In this document: piece by piece, positions 2,246 through 9,892 of the stretch | Numbering within the stretch: position 1 is the stretch's first letter | Layout of the letters: every line of letters starts with the position of its first letter | Virus record (IMG/VR): IMGVR_UViG_2579779077_000004 | Reading direction: 5' to 3' (one strand) | Origin: a virus | Taxonomy: Duplodnaviria; Heunggongvirae; Uroviricota; Caudoviricetes | Length of the DNA stretch: 9,892 bases | Notes under the pieces: model-generated | What the model was told of the DNA's origin: nothing | The model's database searches: none | The model's input: the letters and a program-made list of their open reading frames with translations, nothing else | Position numbers and translations under genes: made by a program

Positions 2246-2656
2246 ATGACAGCACAAATTGCAGCTTACGGGCGGCTGGTGGACGACCCGCAGGTAAAAC
2301 AGAGCAGCAAGGGCACACCGATGACTCTGGCGCGTATGGCGGTATCGTTGCCATGCAGCCAGGCACATGACGGACAGGCGACGTTATGGTTATCGGTTAT
2401 CGCATTTGGCAAACAGGCCGATTTCCTGGCTAAACATCAAAAAGGCGATGTTGCCAGCGTATCCGGCACGATGCAGGTAAGCCAGTGGACCGGACAGAAC
2501 GGGGAAACGCGGCGGGGGTATCAGGTTATTGCAGACAGCGTAATCAGTGCCCGCGCGGCACGTCCAGGCGGGAACAGACGCAAAACCACAGGCACACAGG
2601 GTAATCAGCCACCAGCGGGAGGCGATGACCCTTACGGTGACGGTATTCCGTTCTGA
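2246..2656 (+). CDS. ssb: Single-stranded DNA-binding protein (short SSB, OB fold)
   Basis: RBS GAGGTGG upstream. The N-terminal stretch IAAYGRLVDDPQV resembles the SSB motif (…VGNLGQDPEV…), there is a conserved W…FGK…A core, a Gly/Pro/Gln-rich linker, and a C-terminal acidic tail ending DDPYGDGIPF (compare the canonical SSB end …DDDIPF). Confidence 0.75.
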   Translation: MTAQIAAYGRLVDDPQVKQSSKGTPMTLARMAVSLPCSQAHDGQATLWLSVIAFGKQADFLAKHQKGDVASVSGTMQVSQWTGQNGETRRGYQVIADSVISARAARPGGNRRKTTGTQGNQPPAGGDDPYGDGIPF

Positions 2657-2666
2657 GGGGGTGACG

Positions 2667-2939
2667 ATGGCACATGACCGCATAGCGGAGGAACTCGAGG
2701 CAAAAGGCTTTTACCGGAGGGCGGCGGCGCGATGGGGTGAAGTCATGCAACTGGTGGAGACAGACAAGGAACGGCATCAGGTTACGATGCGACGGCTGGA
2801 ATGTTCCAGGAAGGCACAGAGGCCACCGGAGCCGCCGGATAACTTCGGAGACCTGAGAAAGGCAGTCGATCGCACTTATGCTGAAATGGGTATGGATGGT
2901 GTAAGCGATGAAATATGGCGTAATTACACAGACAGCTAA
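2667..2939 (+). CDS. PerC-family transcriptional regulator-like protein (90 aa)
   Basis: ATG at 2667 with GAGGGGG 6-12 nt upstream. The ORF-track start at 2547 would overlap ssb with no RBS. The N-terminal motif AEELEAKGFYRRAAARWGEVM matches my recollection of the PerC/Pch signature; this is a family-level call only. Confidence 0.55.
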   Translation: MAHDRIAEELEAKGFYRRAAARWGEVMQLVETDKERHQVTMRRLECSRKAQRPPEPPDNFGDLRKAVDRTYAEMGMDGVSDEIWRNYTDS

Positions 2940-2944
2940 TCAAC

Positions 2945-2966
2945 AGCCGGAGCAATCCGGCTTTTT
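2945..2966 (+). terminator. Rho-independent terminator after the PerC-like gene
   Basis: Stem AGCCGGA (2945-2951), GCAA tetraloop, TCCGGCT (2956-2962), followed by a T-run (2962-2966, then TTATTTTTT). Confidence 0.55.
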
Positions 2967-2986
2967 GTTATTTTTTGTAAATTATT

Positions 2987-3033
2987 TGTTCGTGGTTGTT
3001 CCACGTTGTTCACTGAGCGGATCGGCATATTTT
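2987..3033 (+). promoter_or_regulatory. Candidate promoter/operator for the head operon: three phased TTGTTC repeats and a sigma70-like -35/-10
   Basis: TTGTTC at 2987-2992, 2997-3002 and 3006-3011, spaced about one helical turn apart. The last one (-35-like) is followed after 16 nt by TATTTT at 3028-3033 (-10-like). A 5-bp inverted repeat CGTGG/CCACG lies at 2991-3005. Confidence 0.3.
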
Positions 3034-3087
3034 ACCCGAACTGAATCATGATTATTCTCGCCTGTGGTGCCAGGACGCTGGGGCCAC

Positions 3088-3135
3088 TTTCCCGCCTGTT
3101 AATGTGCTCGCCAATATTCATTACCAGGCGGGAAA
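3088..3135. promoter_or_regulatory. Perfect 11-bp inverted repeat in the capsid-gene leader (operator or RNA stem-loop)
   Basis: TTTCCCGCCTG (3088-3098) and CAGGCGGGAAA (3125-3135) are exact reverse complements separated by 26 nt. They are nested inside a 9-bp long-range inverted repeat, CCAGGACGC (3070-3078) and GCGTCCTGG (3187-3195). Confidence 0.35.
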
Positions 3136-3226
3136 ACGATCGGTGCGATTACTGATTTCCTTATGAAAAACGGTTGAGTGTTTGCCGCGTCCTGGAGTTC
3201 CTTACTTAACCCCAGGACTTTTTTTT

Positions 3227-4384
3227 ATGCCGAGAATAATCGAATTACGCCAGCAGAAAACCGCCATTAAAAATCAGATGCGCGACATGCTGGAGAACGC
3301 TGAAAAAGAAAACCGCAGTCTTAACGATGCTGAGGGCGCAAAATTTGACGAATTACGCGCTAAAGCTGAATCCCTCGATAAAGACATTTCCCGCCTTGAA
3401 GCCATTGCAGACGAAGAGCGCAGCAAGCCAGGTAAAAGCAGTCAGACCACTGACCCCGCAGAACTACGAAACTACATTCTGACGGGTGAAACCCGCGCAT
3501 TAAGTACAGGCGTTCCCGCTGATGGTGGTTATACCGTTATCCCCGAACTGAACACCGAAATCATGCGAATGCTGGCGGATGAATCCACCATGCGCCGCAT
3601 CTGTACCGTGAAGAAAATCAGCAGCAACGAGTTTAAGCAGCTTGTTTCCGCTGGCGGTGCGACCGTTAACCACGGTGAAGAGGGTAAGGCACGCGAACAG
3701 ACCAGCACCCCGCAGATTAACGAGGTGAGCATTAAGCTGTATCCGGTCTATGCGTACCCGCGCACCACACAGGAAATCGTGGATTTTTCCGATGTGGACA
3801 TCCTTTCATGGCTGACGGGTGAGATTGGCGACACCTTCACGGAAACCGAAGAAAGCGATCTGGTTGTGGGCGACGGTGACAAAAAAGCAAAAGGTTTTTT
3901 ATCCGTACCCCGTGCAGAGAAGAACGACAAAGAGCGTGATTTTGGTACGTTGCAGGTAATTAAACCTTCCGAATCTCTGGCGTGGACATCTGCGGACCCG
4001 CTGATCGACCTGAAATTTGCATTACGTAAAAAATACCGCAAAAACGCGGTCTGGGTGGTTAACTCCACGACGGCGGCAAAACTTCAGAAGGTGAAGAACG
4101 CGAACGGTGATTACATCTGGCGCGACCGTTTACAGGCGGGTGATCCTGATACGTTGCTGGGCCTTCCGGTCGAATATCTGGAGTTTATGCCTGATAACGT
4201 TATTGCCCTGGGTGACTTCAAACGCGGTTACTACATTGTTGATCACGAAACAGGTGTTCGCACCAGACCGGACAACCTCACAGAGCCGGGCTTCATCAAA
4301 ATTTTCACGCAGAAATATTTAGGCGGTGGCGTGGTGGATTCGAACGCGATCAAGATTCTGGAACTGCCACAGGACGACGATTAA
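3227..4384 (+). CDS. Major capsid protein, HK97 fold, with N-terminal coiled-coil delta (scaffolding) domain
   Basis: 385 aa from the ATG at 3227 (the ORF track begins at an upstream TTG at 3182). The N-terminus has a charged coiled-coil heptad pattern (IIELRQQKTAIKNQMRDMLENAEKENRSL…DELRAKAESLDKDISRLEAI), followed by a mature domain with HK97-MCP-like motifs (GGYTVIPEL…, …LLGLPVEY…). Confidence 0.9.
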   Translation: MPRIIELRQQKTAIKNQMRDMLENAEKENRSLNDAEGAKFDELRAKAESLDKDISRLEAIADEERSKPGKSSQTTDPAELRNYILTGETRALSTGVPADGGYTVIPELNTEIMRMLADESTMRRICTVKKISSNEFKQLVSAGGATVNHGEEGKAREQTSTPQINEVSIKLYPVYAYPRTTQEIVDFSDVDILSWLTGEIGDTFTETEESDLVVGDGDKKAKGFLSVPRAEKNDKERDFGTLQVIKPSESLAWTSADPLIDLKFALRKKYRKNAVWVVNSTTAAKLQKVKNANGDYIWRDRLQAGDPDTLLGLPVEYLEFMPDNVIALGDFKRGYYIVDHETGVRTRPDNLTEPGFIKIFTQKYLGGGVVDSNAIKILELPQDDD

Positions 4385-4394
4385 CAGCATACAG

Positions 4395-4423
4395 AAGGGG
4401 CTTAAAAGCCCCTTTAGTGTTTT
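4395..4423 (+). terminator. Hairpin with U-rich tail between capsid and protease genes (partial terminator or RNA stability element)
   Basis: Stem AAGGGGC (4395-4401), loop TTAAAA, stem GCCCCTT (4408-4414), then TAGTGTTTT. Confidence 0.4.
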
Positions 4424-4996
4424 ATGGGTGAAAAAATTATGAAGAGTATGGAAATCCGGTCATCGGAAATCACCACCAGCGGAGCCGGTACGCTGACGGG
4501 CTACGTTGTTCGCTGGGATAAGCTTTCAGAACTGTTATGGGGTGAGTTTTACGAAAAATTCCAGCGGGGGGCGTTTACTGAATGGCTTGCGGCGGGTAAT
4601 GACGTTCGCGGCCTGTATGAGCATGACCACAGTATGTTACTGGGGCGCACCCGTTCCGGCACGCTGAAACTGGAAGAGGACGAAACAGGGTTACGCTTTG
4701 AACTGACCCCACCGGATACCAGTACAGGGCGCGACGTTATCGAACTGGTTAAACGTGGTGATATATCCGGCATGAGCTTTGGCTTTCGCTCCCGTAAGGA
4801 TGTATGGGATACCACAACAGATCCATGCGTTCGTACCGTGCTGGTGGCAGAACTGTACGAAATTACCGTTACATCGGTACCGGCTTACCCCGATTCCGGC
4901 GTGGAGCTGGCCCGCCGTTCCCTGTATGAGCAGCACCCCGAAAAAATGCCGCGTGCGGATAATCGCCGCTGGTGGGTGGATTTAGCGGGGGTGTGA
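4424..4996 (+). CDS. Prohead maturation protease, HK97 family (peptidase S78-like)
   Basis: Motifs LYEHDHSMLLGRT and GDISGMSFGF are typical of HK97 gp4-type prohead proteases. The start is ambiguous between ATGs at 4424, 4439 and 4448. Confidence 0.85.
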   Translation: MGEKIMKSMEIRSSEITTSGAGTLTGYVVRWDKLSELLWGEFYEKFQRGAFTEWLAAGNDVRGLYEHDHSMLLGRTRSGTLKLEEDETGLRFELTPPDTSTGRDVIELVKRGDISGMSFGFRSRKDVWDTTTDPCVRTVLVAELYEITVTSVPAYPDSGVELARRSLYEQHPEKMPRADNRRWWVDLAGV

Positions 4997-4997
4997 T

Positions 4998-6209
4998 ATG
5001 TGGCCTTTCAGAAGAAAAAAAGAGCAGCGCAGCATGACGCTTGATGAATTTATGGCGCTGGCTGGCACATCGAACACGGGGGCGGGTGAGTACGTATCAT
5101 CGGGGACAGCGGAATCACTGCCCGCCGTCATGAACGCCGTGACGGTCATTTCTGAGGCGGTGGCTACCATGCCGTGTTACCTGTACCTGGTACGCAATGA
5201 GAAGGGGAAGGAGGCCCGCGAGTGGCTTGATTCTCATCCGGTCGATCACATCCTCAACGAGCGCCCGAACGCGTGGCAGACTCCCTACCAGTTTAAGCGA
5301 ATGATGATCCGCCACTGCCTGTTAAACGGTAATGCTTATGCGGTGATTCAGTGGGGGCGTGATGGTTTTCCGGTGGCTTTACATCCTTACCCGCCGCAGT
5401 CGGTGAACGTGGAGCAGACAGGCGAACACAACTGGCGCTACTGCATCACTGACGCTTACACCGGAAACACCCGCAACTATTTACCGTGGGAGGTACTTCA
5501 CCTTCGTTACTCCACGGATGACGGCTTTATGGGGCGCTCACCTGTAACCATCTGCCGCGAATCGCTGGGGCTTGGGCTGGCCCAACAACGCCACGGCGCG
5601 AGCGTGATGCGTGATGGCATGATGGCGGCAGGGGTTATCACGTCAGGCGAATGGCTGGACGGCGTGAAGGGCAAACAGGCATTAGCCGCACTGGAACGCT
5701 ACAAAGGGGCCAGAAACGCCGGAAAAACGCCCATCCTTGAAGGGGGGATGAGCTATCAGCAGCTGGGCATGAGTAATCAGGATGCTGAATGGCTGGCCTC
5801 CCGTCGCTTCACCATTGAAGACATCGCCCGAATGTTCAACGTCTCGCCGATTTTTCTGCAGGAATACAGCAACAGCACCTACAGCAATTTCAGCGAGGCA
5901 AGCCGCGCATTTCTCACCATGACGATGCGCCCGTGGCTGGCGAACTTTGAGCAGCAGATAAAAAACGCCTTGCTGGTGGTCTCGCCTGTACCTGGTATCC
6001 GGTATCAGGTGGAGTTTGACAGCGCGGACCTGTTACGGGCCACACCTGGCGAACGCTTTGCCACCTATGAGCGCGGCATCAAATCCGGCGTAATGTGTCC
6101 GAACGAAGCCCGCGAACGTGAAGGACTGTCACCGCGTGATGGTGGTGATGAGTTCAGCCAGGCATGGAAACAGGAAGTAAAAATCAGCGAGGGAGAAAAA
6201 CCGGAATGA
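4998..6209 (+). CDS. Portal protein, HK97 family
   Basis: 403-aa ORF with GCGGGGG RBS upstream of the ATG at 4998. Size and sequence character fit HK97-type portals. It begins 2 nt after the protease stop. Confidence 0.88.
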   Translation: MWPFRRKKEQRSMTLDEFMALAGTSNTGAGEYVSSGTAESLPAVMNAVTVISEAVATMPCYLYLVRNEKGKEAREWLDSHPVDHILNERPNAWQTPYQFKRMMIRHCLLNGNAYAVIQWGRDGFPVALHPYPPQSVNVEQTGEHNWRYCITDAYTGNTRNYLPWEVLHLRYSTDDGFMGRSPVTICRESLGLGLAQQRHGASVMRDGMMAAGVITSGEWLDGVKGKQALAALERYKGARNAGKTPILEGGMSYQQLGMSNQDAEWLASRRFTIEDIARMFNVSPIFLQEYSNSTYSNFSEASRAFLTMTMRPWLANFEQQIKNALLVVSPVPGIRYQVEFDSADLLRATPGERFATYERGIKSGVMCPNEAREREGLSPRDGGDEFSQAWKQEVKISEGEKPE

Positions 6210-6544
6210 ACATAGGGCGACTGCGTGACAGGATAACGATTCAGACCCTGAAACAGACCAGGGATATAACCGGCGAAATACTCGAAACGTGGGAGGACGG
6301 TCACACACTCTGGGCAAGCGTGAACATGGTCAGCAGCAAGGAGGCCATTTCATCGGGTGCAGAGCTGGCGATTGGTACCGTAAGGATCTGGATACGGTAC
6401 CGGAAGGACATCAACGCCACCAGCCGGATAAAGGTCAGTACGGGGCCGCTGGCGGGGCGTGTACTGAATATCATCGGGCAGCCGCTGCCGGATGCCGCCA
6501 GGACACGCCTTGAAATTCTTTGTCGTGAGGGCGCGGAAAAATGA
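6206..6544 (+). CDS. Head closure / head-tail adaptor protein (phage head-tail joining family, SPP1 gp16-like)
   Basis: ATG at 6206 overlaps the portal stop (ATGA) with GGGAGA 8-13 nt upstream. The ORF-track start at 6164 lies inside the portal gene. About 112 aa (MNIGRLRDRITIQ…), the size and pattern of this family. Confidence 0.75.
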   Translation: MNIGRLRDRITIQTLKQTRDITGEILETWEDGHTLWASVNMVSSKEAISSGAELAIGTVRIWIRYRKDINATSRIKVSTGPLAGRVLNIIGQPLPDAARTRLEILCREGAEK

Positions 6545-6837
6545 CAGAAGAACTTATCACCCTGGAAGAAGTGAAACTCCATTGCCGCATCGATGGCGAC
6601 GAGGAAGACCAGTTAATCAGCGGATACATTGCCGCATCGCTTGAGGCGTGCCAGATACACATAGGCAGGCGCTTTGATGACGGGCTGGAGTTCACGCCAG
6701 CCATAAAGATTGGCTGCATGATGTTTATCGCTCACCTGTATGAGAATCGCCAGATTGTCGCGGATAACGCAAAAACACGCGTACCCATGACGATTGGCGC
6801 ACTCTGGACGGCTTACCGTGATGTGGGGGTGTACTGA
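6541..6837 (+). CDS. gp6-like head-tail connector protein
   Basis: N-terminus LITLEEVKLHCRIDGDEEDQLISGYI resembles HK97 gp6-type connectors (…LTLEEAKAHLRVD…). ATGA overlap with the upstream gene; 98 aa. Confidence 0.8.
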   Translation: MTEELITLEEVKLHCRIDGDEEDQLISGYIAASLEACQIHIGRRFDDGLEFTPAIKIGCMMFIAHLYENRQIVADNAKTRVPMTIGALWTAYRDVGVY

Positions 6838-7277
6838 TGCCGTGGCAACCATTAAGACGATGCACAGAACCAGGCTGTAACAGGCGCGTTAAATCCGGCA
6901 AGTGTGAGGAGCACAGGCGGGCGGCATGGCGTGCAGAGGATGCCAGACGAGGACACCGCCGCGCGCGTGGATATTCCAGACAGTGGGACAAATACCGCGC
7001 CATGTATCTGAGTAAAAACCCGTTATGCGTGCGATGCCTTGAGAAGGGGATATATACGCCCGCCGTGGTGGTGGATCACATTATCCCGATTAATGGCGGT
7101 GATGATGTTCTCTTCTGGCCCGAATGGAACCATCAACCATTGTGTCAGGCGTGTCATAACCAGAAAACGAAATGGCTTGATCCGGCAACAAAAAGCAAGC
7201 GTGCCGCAGGTGGATTTCGTGAAGAGGAAGAACGGGCCGCTAACCGCAATAACTGGATGTATGACGCTGATGAATGA
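6837..7277 (+). CDS. HNH endonuclease, phage packaging-associated
   Basis: Cys-rich N-terminus (CTEPGCNRRVKSGKCEEH) and an HNH motif (VVDHIIPINGGDD…WNHQPLCQACHNQKT). The start overlaps the previous stop by 1 nt (TGATG). It sits just upstream of terS, as in HK97-like cos phages. Confidence 0.85.
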   Translation: MPWQPLRRCTEPGCNRRVKSGKCEEHRRAAWRAEDARRGHRRARGYSRQWDKYRAMYLSKNPLCVRCLEKGIYTPAVVVDHIIPINGGDDVLFWPEWNHQPLCQACHNQKTKWLDPATKSKRAAGGFREEEERAANRNNWMYDADE

Positions 7278-7446
7278 GCGGGAACAAAACCGCCTTATCC
7301 GTGGACTTATAAGGCAGCGTGACACATGGAAGACACAGGAAACAGGGCATAAAGATAAAGCGTCAGGACGCGCAGAACGCATCACAGCGAAGCGATTAAC
7401 CGACCGTGACCGCGAGGTTATGGAATGTTTCCGCAATCGCTGGTGA
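7261..7446 (+). CDS. Possible small basic protein (about 61 aa)
   Basis: ATG at 7261 in the +1 frame relative to HNH, overlapping its last 17 nt (MTLMNEREQNRLIRGLIRQRD…NRW). RBS is weak and no family is recognised. It occupies the HNH-terS spacer. Confidence 0.22.
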   Translation: MTLMNEREQNRLIRGLIRQRDTWKTQETGHKDKASGRAERITAKRLTDRDREVMECFRNRW

Positions 7447-7565
7447 TGCTGTATGACGGGGTGGGGGGCGTTTTCAGGACAAACCCGACCCCGCCGGGCA
7501 CCGAACGCCTCCTCAAATTTTTATGCACGGGAATTTTTTGAAAAATAATCTGGCGAAAAATAAGC
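7447..7565. other. Candidate cos / packaging-initiation region upstream of terS
   Basis: Non-coding spacer with a GC-rich element (GACGGGGTGGGGGGCG at 7455-7470, then CCCGACCCCGCCGGG) followed by an AT-rich stretch (AAATTTTTATGCACGGGAATTTTTTGAAAAATAATC). The assignment rests on position only. Confidence 0.3.
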
Positions 7566-7922
7566 ATGGCAAGACCACCGAAAGCCCCCGCCTACCTGGA
7601 TGACATCGCCGTGAAGCAGTGGCGGGAAAAATCGCGGCAGCTTGCGGAACGGGGAGACCTGACTCCCGCCGACTGGAGCAATCTGGAACTGTATTGTGTC
7701 AACTACTCCATTTACCGGAAAGCCGTTGCAGACCTTGCGGCGCGCGGGTTCAGCATTGTTAACAGTCAGGGCGGCGAGAGCAGAAACCCCGCATTAAGCG
7801 CAAAATCCGACGCTGAAAGAGTGATGATAAAAATGGCCTCCTTGCTCGGTTTTGACCCGATAAGCCGCCGTAAAAATCCACCGGAAACAGAAGAAGAGGA
7901 CGAGCTTGACCGCCTGGAATAA
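7566..7922 (+). CDS. terS: Terminase small subunit, P27 family
   Basis: 118 aa with a P27-family-like pattern (…LTPADWSNLELYCVNYSIYRKA…NPALSA…MIKMASLLGFDPISRRK) and an acidic C-terminus. Lies between the HNH and TerL genes. Confidence 0.85.
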   Translation: MARPPKAPAYLDDIAVKQWREKSRQLAERGDLTPADWSNLELYCVNYSIYRKAVADLAARGFSIVNSQGGESRNPALSAKSDAERVMIKMASLLGFDPISRRKNPPETEEEDELDRLE

Positions 7923-9567
7923 GTACGCAGAAGACGTAAAAACGGGCAAAATTCCGGCCTGTAAACGGCTGAAACAGGCCGTTAAACGGTACTTTTCGGA
8001 CCTTAAAAACCCCCTTTATACGTTCGATCGTGAGGTCGTGGAGCGGTTTATTGCCTTTTCCAGGGTGTGCCCGCACGTAAAAGGGCCGATGCGTGGCAGA
8101 CCCATTGAGCTGGAGCCGTGGCAGCAGTTCGCCTTTGCGTGCATCCTCGGCTTTAAGGTTAAGGCCACCGGACGGCGCAAATACACGAGCGCATTTATCG
8201 AAGTGCCGCGCAAAAATGCGAAATCCACGACCGCCGCGATTCTGGCTAACTGGTTTCTGATTATGGAGAACGGGCAGCAGGATATTTACACCGCAGCAGT
8301 GAGCCGTGACCAGGCGCGGATCGTTTTTGATGATGCGCGTCAGATGTGCCTTTTATCCCGACCGTTACGCAGGCGGGTGAATATTCAGGCCCACAAGGTG
8401 ATGCACCCGAAAAGCAACAGCCTGTTAAAGCCGCTGGCAGCAAAAGCGGCAACCATCGAGGGCACAAACCCAAGCCTTTCCATCGTGGACGAATACCACC
8501 TACACCCCGATAACGGCGTTTATTCCGCGCTTGAGCTGGGGATGGGCGCACGTCCCGAAGGGCTGTTATTTGCCATTACCACATCGGGCAGTAACGTCGT
8601 TTCAGCCTGTAAACAGCACTATGATTATTGCTGCCAGATCCTGGACGGCGAAGAGGTCAACGATTCAATTTTTGTGCTGATTTACGAGCTGGACGACGAA
8701 AACGAGGTTGATGATCCGGGGATGTGGATAAAGGCTAACCCTAACATCGATGTTTCCGTGGATCGTGAAAAACTGGCCTCAACCATCCAGAAAGCGCGGG
8801 GTATTCCGTCGCAATGGGTGGAGATGATGACAAAGCGATTTAATATCTGGTGCCAGGGGGCTACCCCGTGGATGGGTAACGGCGCATGGGTTGAGTGTGC
8901 CGGAACGTTCATGGAGGAAGATTTACACGGGCAGGAGTGTTACGCGGGGCTGGACTTATCATCAACCAGCGATATTTCCAGCGTGTGCTATGCCTTTCCG
9001 GTCGGTAAAACCATTATGCTGATTTCCCGTCATTATCTGCCGGAGTTCCAGCTACAGAACCCCGCCAATAAAAACCGCGCTGTCTATCGCCAGTGGGCTA
9101 AAGCGGGCTGGATACGCACAACGCCAGGTGACTGCATTGATTACGACCGGATCAGAGATGACATCATGCAGGATGCGGAGAAATTTAATATCAGGCTGGT
9201 GGGCTTTGATACGTGGAACGCCACGCATCTCAGGACGCAATTACAGGGGGCTGGTTTTGAGGTGGAGCCGTTCCCGCAAACCTACCTCAGATTCAGTCCG
9301 GCGGCGAAATCGTTCGAAGTTTTTGTTAACCGCAGGGTGATTGTGCATCGTGGCGATCCGGTGTTGTCCTGGTCGATGAGTAACGTCGTGATGCAGAGTG
9401 ACGCGAACGCCAATATCAAGCCGAACAAGAAAAAATCACCGAACAAGATAGACCCGAGCGTAGCGGCGCTGATGGCGTTTGGTACATTCCAGGCAGAGCA
9501 TGAGGATTTTGCTTTTGATATAAGCGACAGCCACCGCCAGAAACTGGAAGAATTTAGCGGGGTGTAA
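7906..9567 (+). CDS. terL: Terminase large subunit (ATPase plus nuclease)
   Basis: 553 aa. N-terminus WNKYAEDVKTGKIPACKRLKQAVKRYFSDLKN is typical of Terminase_1-type TerL. The apparent start is TTG at 7906 with GAGGA 5 nt upstream, overlapping terS by 17 nt in the +1 frame; there is no in-frame ATG or GTG between the upstream stop and this TTG. Confidence 0.9.
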   Translation: MTAWNKYAEDVKTGKIPACKRLKQAVKRYFSDLKNPLYTFDREVVERFIAFSRVCPHVKGPMRGRPIELEPWQQFAFACILGFKVKATGRRKYTSAFIEVPRKNAKSTTAAILANWFLIMENGQQDIYTAAVSRDQARIVFDDARQMCLLSRPLRRRVNIQAHKVMHPKSNSLLKPLAAKAATIEGTNPSLSIVDEYHLHPDNGVYSALELGMGARPEGLLFAITTSGSNVVSACKQHYDYCCQILDGEEVNDSIFVLIYELDDENEVDDPGMWIKANPNIDVSVDREKLASTIQKARGIPSQWVEMMTKRFNIWCQGATPWMGNGAWVECAGTFMEEDLHGQECYAGLDLSSTSDISSVCYAFPVGKTIMLISRHYLPEFQLQNPANKNRAVYRQWAKAGWIRTTPGDCIDYDRIRDDIMQDAEKFNIRLVGFDTWNATHLRTQLQGAGFEVEPFPQTYLRFSPAAKSFEVFVNRRVIVHRGDPVLSWSMSNVVMQSDANANIKPNKKKSPNKIDPSVAALMAFGTFQAEHEDFAFDISDSHRQKLEEFSGV

Positions 9568-9580
9568 TGAGGTCAGCAGC

Positions 9581-9862
9581 ATGACAGAAGCCGAAATACT
9601 GCGATTAATCCGCCGCGTCTCTGGAATCAGCCAGCAGGCTGACGAACAGACCACGCAGCCGGACAGCGTGACAGCCGAAAATTATGCGCGTGTTGTTGCT
9701 GAGGTGATGCGCCGTGATGGTATCCAGCTTAATGATGCGGATATGCGCGACATACGGATCCGCGTTCTGGAAATGCTGGCCTACAATCGCCGCGTTGAAC
9801 TGTATCGGGAGAAGGAGAAAATCACGTACCACTGGAAGAAGCCGGAGCGGTTACGGCGGTAA
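9581..9862 (+). CDS. Hypothetical protein (93 aa) downstream of terL
   Basis: ATG at 9581 with GAGG about 10 nt upstream. Charged, probably alpha-helical protein (MTEAEILRLIRRVSG…); no family recognised. Confidence 0.5.
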   Translation: MTEAEILRLIRRVSGISQQADEQTTQPDSVTAENYARVVAEVMRRDGIQLNDADMRDIRIRVLEMLAYNRRVELYREKEKITYHWKKPERLRR

Positions 9863-9892
9863 CTCACTGAGATTAAAGCAAAGCGCGAAATT

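Follow-up and report, generated by a model that had tools for sequence, protein, structure and literature searches.

A capsid-first packaging operon in Escherichia coli DNA related to the capsid-forming satellite EcCIEDL933

Phage-inducible chromosomal islands that form their own capsids (capsid-forming PICIs, or cf-PICIs) are tail-stealing satellites whose packaging operon in proteobacteria, according to the papers describing them, runs capsid-protease-portal-connectors-hnh-terS-terL. The prototype, EcCIEDL933 from E. coli, has been published as a 15.4–15.5 kb element that carries int, alpA, rep, a PerC-like gene and a full capsid and packaging gene set and from which tail genes are absent (bioRxiv 10.1101/2022.09.08.507074; 10.1101/2025.02.11.637232). 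Capsid formation and transfer have been demonstrated experimentally for this island, and it has a T = 4 capsid, a tail hijacked from HK106 and cohesive ends. As this literature describes it, a helper phage induces the island by way of AlpA, the island then replicates and expresses its operon, and the capsid protein, protease and portal form a small T = 4 capsid of the HK97 fold; HNH and the small and large terminase subunits (TerS and TerL) cleave the island's own cos and load the ~15-kb island DNA, and two connector proteins finish the head, which is tail-less and takes the tail of the helper phage. SatelliteFinder counts 969 cf-PICIs, and the type with all 11 core components is very abundant in Enterobacteriaceae (13% of genomes). 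Here, we analyze a 9,892-nt stretch of viral DNA (IMG/VR record IMGVR_UViG_2579779077_000004; hereafter the window) and conclude, with a probability of roughly 0.93, that it is the replication and packaging part of an E. coli cf-PICI with essentially the packaging operon of EcCIEDL933 and that its genes stand in the ancestral order that is fixed in the gammaproteobacterial cf-PICI clade.

With the window as reference and family calls made with Pfam and PHROGs, a complete head and packaging set can be recognized, namely capsid, protease, portal, two connectors (the head-closure protein Hc1 and the gp6-like head-tail adaptor Ad1), HNH, TerS and TerL (Table 1). All coding in the window is on the + strand, and neither GC content nor GC skew shows a break. 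The eight family assignments of an initial annotation, made from the letters alone, proved correct at the coordinates that it gave; missing from its list was a small open reading frame (ORF) between HNH and TerS. None of the packaging genes is broken, five of their junctions are overlaps of 1–17 nt, a single nucleotide separates protease and portal, and there are only two true gaps in the operon (39 nt 3′ of the capsid gene and 119 nt 5′ of TerS), in keeping with the initial description of the genes as co-directional and tightly coupled. Searches of the window with Pfam and PHROGs revealed no tail or lysis genes, an Rfam scan of the whole window gave no family above threshold, and PADLOC gave no defence-system match among the unassigned ORFs of the window and the accessory protein of the Klebsiella island KpCIDSM30104 discussed below.

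The nature of the element becomes apparent in the best-matching E. coli genome (locus L001 in our numbering; EDL933 is L085 and K. pneumoniae ATCC 13883 is L007), where an island is located between roxA and phoQ and is delimited by direct repeats of 26 nt that lie 14.5 kb from each other. It encodes a P4-type tyrosine integrase (PF00589), AlpA (PF05930), small regulatory genes, a RepA-type helicase, a single-stranded DNA-binding protein (SSB) and PerC, and its right part consists of the eight packaging genes followed by two small ORFs. E. coli O157:H7 strain EDL933 has a like island at the same roxA/phoQ site, also with integrase and AlpA, that measures ~15.2 kb between its att repeats, and the annotation of neither genome shows a tail or lysis gene between roxA and phoQ. 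The nucleotide identity of window positions 2943–9864 to the EDL933 island is 97.3%, and the encoded proteins are 96–100% identical (Ad1 and TerS 100%, capsid 99.5%, portal and HNH 99.3%, TerL 98%, protease 97%, Hc1 96%). A hint of satellites in the initial annotation is thus borne out by a packaging operon nearly identical to that of the EDL933 island, an island that matches EcCIEDL933 in strain, size and gene content. From these protein identities, one would expect the present variant likewise to be induced by a helper, to package only island DNA into small T = 4 capsids and to use helper tails. A cf-PICI is a 10–18 kb island that carries a replication module besides an integrase and a regulator of the AlpA type; here, the replication gene is in the window itself, and the rest is found in L001 and EDL933. 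The features of an HK97-like prophage (canonical late gene order; tail, lysis and immunity modules; a genome of ~37–47 kb) do not describe this element, nor does the definition of a classical PICI, which lacks the portal, connectors and TerL, all of which are present in the window.

Table 1. Positions of genes and other features in the 9,892-nt window
Feature	Position	Strand	Matches and remarks
Replication protein, RepA-family / AAA_25 helicase, 465 aa	85–1482	+	PF13481 2.3e-43; phrog_2850 full length
Single-stranded DNA-binding protein	2246–2656	+	PF00436 3.3e-16; 98% to EDL933 copy
PerC-family regulator, last gene before packaging operon	2667–2939	+	PF06069 6.7e-44
Intergenic region, 287 nt, presumed operon promoter region	2940–3226	+	terminator-like hairpin 2945–2962
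HK97-fold major capsid protein, first gene of the operon	3227–4384	+	PF05065 1.8e-61; phrog_10 9.1e-89
Terminator-like GC hairpin	4394–4415	+	GAAGGGGCTT-AAAA-GCCCCTTT, then T-rich tail
Prohead serine protease S78	4424–4996	+	PF04586 7e-48; phrog_80 1.9e-67
Portal	4998–6209	+	PF04860 9.2e-91; phrog_12 7.1e-116
Head-closure protein Hc1 (Phage_HCP)	6206–6544	+	PF05521 1.7e-23; phrog_25 6.8e-35
gp6-like head-tail adaptor Ad1 (Phage_connect_1)	6541–6837	+	PF05135 8.4e-12; phrog_40 7.9e-36
HNH endonuclease, packaging accessory protein of HK97-type cos systems	6837–7277	+	PF01844 1.8e-08; phrog_144 8.1e-45
Conserved ORF, 61 aa	7261–7446	+	phrog_3173 3.4e-36
Putative cos, non-coding element	7458–7550	.	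GGGTGGGGG ... ACCGCCCGCCCCCTCAAATTTTTACGCACGG..ATTTTTTTGAAAATAA, 67 distinct sequences
TerS, P27 / Terminase_4 family	7566–7922	+	PF05119 1.3e-23; phrog_83 2.6e-39
TerL, ATPase and nuclease domains	7906–9567	+	PF03354 1.3e-25; PF20441 9.7e-50; phrog_9 1.1e-177
ORF 3′ of TerL, 93 aa	9581–9862	+	phrog_1561 1.5e-55

Along the + strand, the operon reads capsid, protease, portal, Hc1, Ad1, HNH, TerS, TerL. HK97, by comparison, has TerS, TerL, portal, protease, capsid, Ad1, Hc1, a gp10-like gene, the tail terminator and the tail genes, with its HNH gene at the far right end of the genome, adjoining cos, and the order TerS-TerL-portal-protease-capsid-Ad1-Hc1-tail is found both in the nearest true phage by TerL (Brucella phage BiPBO1, 36% identity) and in the nearest by capsid (Pseudomonas phage VW-6S, 37%). 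All three differ from the window, as claimed in the initial annotation when it called the order non-canonical relative to HK97-like phages, and the synteny comparison that it proposed shows an order shared with cf-PICIs and not with the true phages compared. Relative to HK97, the head genes lie upstream of HNH rather than downstream of TerL, and each sub-block is reversed. Neither a single inversion nor one block transposition of the HK97 order yields the observed order with all genes co-directional; by reasoning, at least four transpositions would be required. The order is the published hallmark of proteobacterial cf-PICIs and no new rearrangement. Two details of the initial description need qualification: the terminase block, said to have moved to the 3′ end, does follow the head genes but is unmoved relative to the putative cos, and the swap of connector and adaptor is seen in the window but is the least fixed part of the arrangement, as 10 of the 74 loci scored have no Hc1 between portal and Ad1. 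If cos is where we place it below, the junction formed by HNH, cos and TerS-TerL has the HK97 layout, and what differs is the place of the five head genes, upstream of HNH.

How widely the order is conserved was assessed by a portal-based scan with one genome per species, which gave 80 loci with portal identities of 60–98%. Ordering by tblastn returned the full eight-gene order in 57 of these and the same order minus a detected Hc1 in 13, the rest being truncated contigs. A closer look was taken at the 74 loci with matches to portal, Ad1, HNH and TerS (the window and L001 included), which span about 28 genera of Enterobacterales, Orbales and Pasteurellales; genera in the survey include Escherichia/Shigella, Klebsiella, Enterobacter, Kosakonia, Citrobacter, Erwinia, Pantoea, Pectobacterium, Serratia, Yersinia, Proteus, Providencia, Xenorhabdus, Photorhabdus, Gilliamella, Frischella, Mannheimia and Haemophilus, among others. 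Across all 74, capsid, protease, portal, Ad1, HNH, TerS and TerL keep the same order with respect to one another. The arrangement is therefore stable, as the initial annotation supposed, over portal identities down to 60%.

The satellites are also set apart from phages by the divergence of their proteins. When TerL was compared against 50,697 phage records, four satellite-like records stood at 68–82% identity and every other record at 36% or less; for the capsid protein, the satellite-like records are at 58–65% and the other phage records at 40% or less. Capsid and TerL thus appear to fall in a satellite clade separate from their phage homologues, a check proposed in the initial annotation that is answered here by a measured identity gap instead of a tree; the published capsid and TerL trees agree in placing the satellite clade apart from phages. 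The four top TerL records are vB_KppS-Ant and Pasteurella Pmp7 and Pmp8 (10.7–16.5 kb), together with Klebsiella phage P12620-1 (106.5 kb), and the gene order of Pmp8 is that of the window. Deposited as "Escherichia phage vB_KppS-Ant" (LR881103.1, our L002; 16.5 kb, from an induced lysate), the first of these is 100% identical to the ATCC 13883 cf-PICI in circularly permuted form and is a satellite despite its name as a phage. A 765-aa ORF labelled there as "tail length tape measure protein" (L002:2036–4333) was considered as a tail gene and rejected, with neither Pfam nor PADLOC returning a match. In the P12620-1 record (PQ569648.1, our L086), the last ~16 kb (90.6–106.5 kb) are a cf-PICI that runs in virion order from TerS through to the small ORF; unrelated DNA abuts it precisely where TerS starts, and the record is probably a concatenate of a phage and a co-purified satellite.

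The ends of these two virion-derived records also bear on the position of cos. HNH adjoins the terminase genes, and between them lies a conserved, putatively HK97-cos-like element that consists of the G-run GGGTGGGGG, ~35 variable nucleotides and then ACCGCCCGCCCCCTCAAATTTTTACGCACGG..ATTTTTTTGAAAATAA. The element is kept across all three bacterial orders, from E. coli to Pasteurellaceae, and its conservation in distant relatives equals or exceeds that of the coding sequence beside it. The ends of the vB_KppS-Ant record flank exactly this element, with 69 nt of it missing, and the cf-PICI part of P12620-1 starts at the second codon of TerS and stops in the small ORF, the absent 134 nt being centred on the same point. 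The HK97 cos junction has a C-rich block at its end, a G-run ~45 nt ahead of that end and a T-run ~25 nt past it, with the TerS start at +50; the pairwise alignment of this junction with the window is weak on its own and is counted solely as supporting evidence on layout. Because conservation, record ends and the HK97-like layout converge, the element is likely the cos site, with cleavage predicted near 7500–7520. This would put cos inside the module, ~2 kb from its 3′ end, and not near that end as initially proposed. With cos at 7458–7550, the packaged DNA would run from cos through TerS-TerL, then through att, int and the regulatory and replication genes to capsid-protease-portal-Hc1-Ad1-HNH and the next cos, so that TerS-TerL would be leftmost and HNH rightmost, as in HK97. 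The adjoining small ORF, which shares 17 nt with the end of the HNH gene, is annotated in L001, EDL933 and vB_KppS-Ant and has tblastn matches in 28 loci, and its position beside the putative cos suggests an accessory role in packaging.

A second conserved non-coding feature, the hairpin directly 3′ of the capsid stop codon, is the best-scoring terminator-like site in the window. Of 64 distinct relatives, 61 have a GGGGC-loop-GCCCC hairpin followed by a T-rich stretch; the loops differ freely, and the stems show a few compensatory changes (e.g., GGGAT/ATCCC and CGGGGC/GCCCCG). The Pasteurellaceae version is a textbook terminator with a T6 tail, and the HK97 annotation has a putative terminator 3′ of gp5, at the same relative position. 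The promoter of the packaging operon is presumed to lie in the intergenic region 5′ of the capsid gene; a sigma-70 scan found no + strand site upstream of the capsid gene, none upstream of TerS, and a lower number of sites than shuffled sequence gives. With the capsid gene proximal to the promoter, a conserved hairpin acting as a leaky terminator would throttle the low-copy components encoded downstream, such that capsid protein would be over-expressed from one promoter. By arithmetic, a T = 4 shell has ~235 capsid subunits. The heads of tailed phages contain about a dozen copies each of the portal and connectors.

Within the operon, Hc1 is the fastest-evolving gene and the only one that varies in position. 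Its place is between portal and Ad1 in 64 of the 74 loci, which have all eight genes in the full order, and between HNH and TerS in two Symbiopectobacterium loci (L045:10996–11313 and L047; phrog_25, 1e-20); in the remaining eight (L020, L048, L061, L063, L065, L067, L068 and L070), it is undetectable, and Ad1 directly follows the portal gene. Islands without Hc1 occur in Xenorhabdus, Pantoea, Yersinia, Serratia, Erwinia and Gilliamella. Outside E. coli/Shigella, Hc1 is the most divergent protein of the module, at 24–55% identity versus 67–81% for TerL, in agreement with reports in the cf-PICI literature that these two connector genes determine which tails are compatible and are swapped among islands that are otherwise identical. 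For the window and the ATCC 13883 island, identities are 38% for Hc1 and 62% for Ad1; because the published values for the adaptor and connector of the prototype and that island are 35% and 63%, the "adaptor" of the cf-PICI papers corresponds to Hc1 and their "connector" to the gp6-like gene. As a separate observation, a gene for a lambda gpI-like tail assembly protein is found directly 3′ of TerL in the Hc1-less locus L020 (13381–14004; phrog_32, 1.1e-71). An ORF in L063 (13257–13880) resembles it in length, position and N-terminus, a likeness drawn from these features alone, and a 116-aa ORF accompanies the gpI-like gene in these Hc1-less islands; a tail-related gene is unexpected in a tail-less satellite.

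It might be argued that the window derives from a cryptic HK97-like prophage in decay, with its gene order scrambled by rearrangements and its tail, lysis and regulatory genes lost. All eight proteins indeed belong to families of HK97-type phages, a few pseudogenes are present in the left regulatory part of the L001 island, and the roxA/phoQ region was called a cryptic prophage in early EDL933 annotation. However, the packaging ORFs are intact and translationally coupled, the island is a discrete 14.5–15.2 kb unit bounded by att repeats, its proteins are no more than 40% identical to those of any true phage, and capsid formation and transfer by EcCIEDL933 are experimental facts in the literature. 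The seven-gene order, moreover, recurs with similar coverage in 74 loci from about 28 genera, a pattern that independent decay would not yield; we consider this explanation highly improbable. Even less credence can be given to a chimeric contig in which head and terminase genes from different elements have been mis-joined. Chimeric records do occur elsewhere, as in P12620-1, but nothing in the window points to one: it aligns as a single 9,892-nt block, at 98.1% identity, to a complete E. coli chromosome, 270 complete E. coli genomes contain at least 80% of it in one place, the order is the same in 74 independent assemblies, and GC content and skew are continuous. The full-length alignment and the 270 genomes exclude the mis-join that the initial annotation had named as a way in which its observation could fail.

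More weight attaches to the question of whether the order matters. It could be a frozen accident of one founding capture with no adaptive value, in which case the initial annotation would have been wrong to call it selected. Descent alone could explain an order found throughout a clade, and the start/stop overlaps at five junctions make rearrangement costly. Because Firmicute cf-PICI clades function with other orders (as reported in the literature), no single order is required for the lifestyle, and a frozen founder arrangement is a serious alternative, one to which we assign slightly less than even odds. Against it, flanking modules are exchanged freely (RepA versus DUF927; insertions and deletions upstream of the capsid gene), and Hc1 moves or disappears while the seven-gene order stays constant, which indicates that rearrangement is possible; the conserved hairpin after a promoter-proximal capsid gene also suggests a functional expression design. 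A stronger proposal would make the capsid-first order an adaptive expression design specific to the satellite clade, with one promoter, a leaky terminator at 4394–4415, head genes placed HNH-proximally on a cos-delimited chromosome and a swappable Hc1 as tail-matching module, and with the cos element, the phrog_3173 protein and the Hc1-less variants as functional parts undescribed in the papers searched. As a whole, we find this proposal doubtful.

Several points weigh against our identification of the window as part of an EcCIEDL933-type cf-PICI. Because the cf-PICI papers searched give no coordinates for EcCIEDL933 (and "phoQ" and "CP-933" do not occur in the preprint text), strain, size and gene content are what link it to the roxA/phoQ island of EDL933. 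The integrase, AlpA and att repeats lie outside the window and are seen only in 97–98% identical islands of other genomes, the replication protein differs from that of EcCIEDL933, 330 bp upstream of the capsid gene are missing, and the sigma-70 scan found no promoter consensus upstream of that gene. It should also be noted that the position of cos is inferred, as are an attenuator function for the hairpin and any adaptive benefit of the gene order.

The differences from EcCIEDL933 are concentrated to the left of the packaging operon. Where the window encodes the 465-aa helicase, EDL933 has a 710-aa DUF927 protein (L085:24039–26171) that resembles it only over the N-terminal 121 aa (68% identity), so the replication module has been exchanged next to a packaging operon with 97% identity. 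The interval between PerC and the capsid gene in EDL933 (L085:27487–27864) contains an extra 330 bp with a 74-aa ORF that is absent from the window; the segment is flanked by a ~24-nt direct repeat containing the 2945–2962 hairpin (window positions 2943–2966), and the difference has the look of an insertion of the moron type or of a deletion between the repeats. Both the replication swap and the 330-bp difference are ordinary mosaic variation within the family. PerC-like genes have been reported in EcCIEDL933 and other Gram-negative PICIs; PerC from another PICI represses the LEE, while the EcCIEDL933 copy is without effect on LEE1 (PMC11773190). On the other side of the operon, the 93-aa ORF has 94–100% identical counterparts only in E. 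coli and Shigella loci, with weak partial matches (~39%, over part of the protein) in the Pantoea locus L063 and the Klebsiella record L086. Many E. coli genome alignments stop at position 9864, from where the variable accessory region at the right end of the island probably starts. As a further observation, some genomes carry three to four copies of the packaging module on separate contigs or at separate sites: Xenorhabdus mauleonii (L037, L043, L054, L056), Pasteurellaceae bacterium Macca (L077–L080) and X. innexi (L035, L041, L050).

Since the element and its family are both known, the finding itself is already known: family, prototype and exact gene order have been published, and the initial annotation amounts to a correct rediscovery from raw sequence. 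Its scientific weight is accordingly small, and its practical value lies in annotation. The arrangement capsid-protease-portal-(Hc1)-Ad1-HNH-TerS-TerL, when no tail genes accompany it, reliably tells cf-PICIs from "incomplete prophages", and several GenBank "phage" records are, or contain, cf-PICI satellites. Studies of packaging and helper-tail use gain several handles: the small ORF, the hairpin that follows the capsid gene, the likely cos element and those relatives that lack Hc1 or have it elsewhere.

Compared with described systems, the window is closest to EcCIEDL933, with which it shares the gene order and the SSB and PerC genes; the closest full-length relative of the window (L001, 98.1% identity) is integrated at the same roxA/phoQ site and differs from EcCIEDL933 in length (14.5 kb versus ~15.2–15.5 kb). 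KpCIDSM30104, the ATCC 13883 island, has the eight-gene order, the small ORF and the putative cos element, with identities of 81% for TerL, 81% for portal and 65% for capsid; it differs in its Hc1 (38%) and Ad1 (62%), in having another primase and in a 765-aa accessory gene 3′ of TerL, and its tail specificity is reported in the cf-PICI literature to differ from that of EcCIEDL933. HK97 and the siphophages of the BiPBO1/VW-6S type with HNH and cos draw on the same families for the eight functions, have a terminator-like hairpin after the capsid gene and, with cos placed as predicted here, would share the succession of HNH, cos and TerS-TerL, but they are 37–47 kb in size, have their own tail and lysis genes and are at most 40% identical to the window in their proteins; the HK97 capsid is T = 7, whereas that of EcCIEDL933 is T = 4. 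The Firmicute cf-PICIs (a Bacillus/Clostridium/Staphylococcus group and a Lactococcus/Enterococcus group) have, according to the literature, the same functional genes and the same tail-stealing lifestyle, with orders that begin with portal-protease-capsid or with HNH-TerS-TerL, and their capsid and TerL phylogenies point to independent origins. Finally, the classical Gram-negative PICIs EcCICFT073 and EcCIED1a resemble the island in its left half (P4-type integrase, AlpA, replication module and PerC-like gene) but remodel the capsids of their helpers and are without portal, connectors and TerL, which the PICI model of SatelliteFinder lists as forbidden components.

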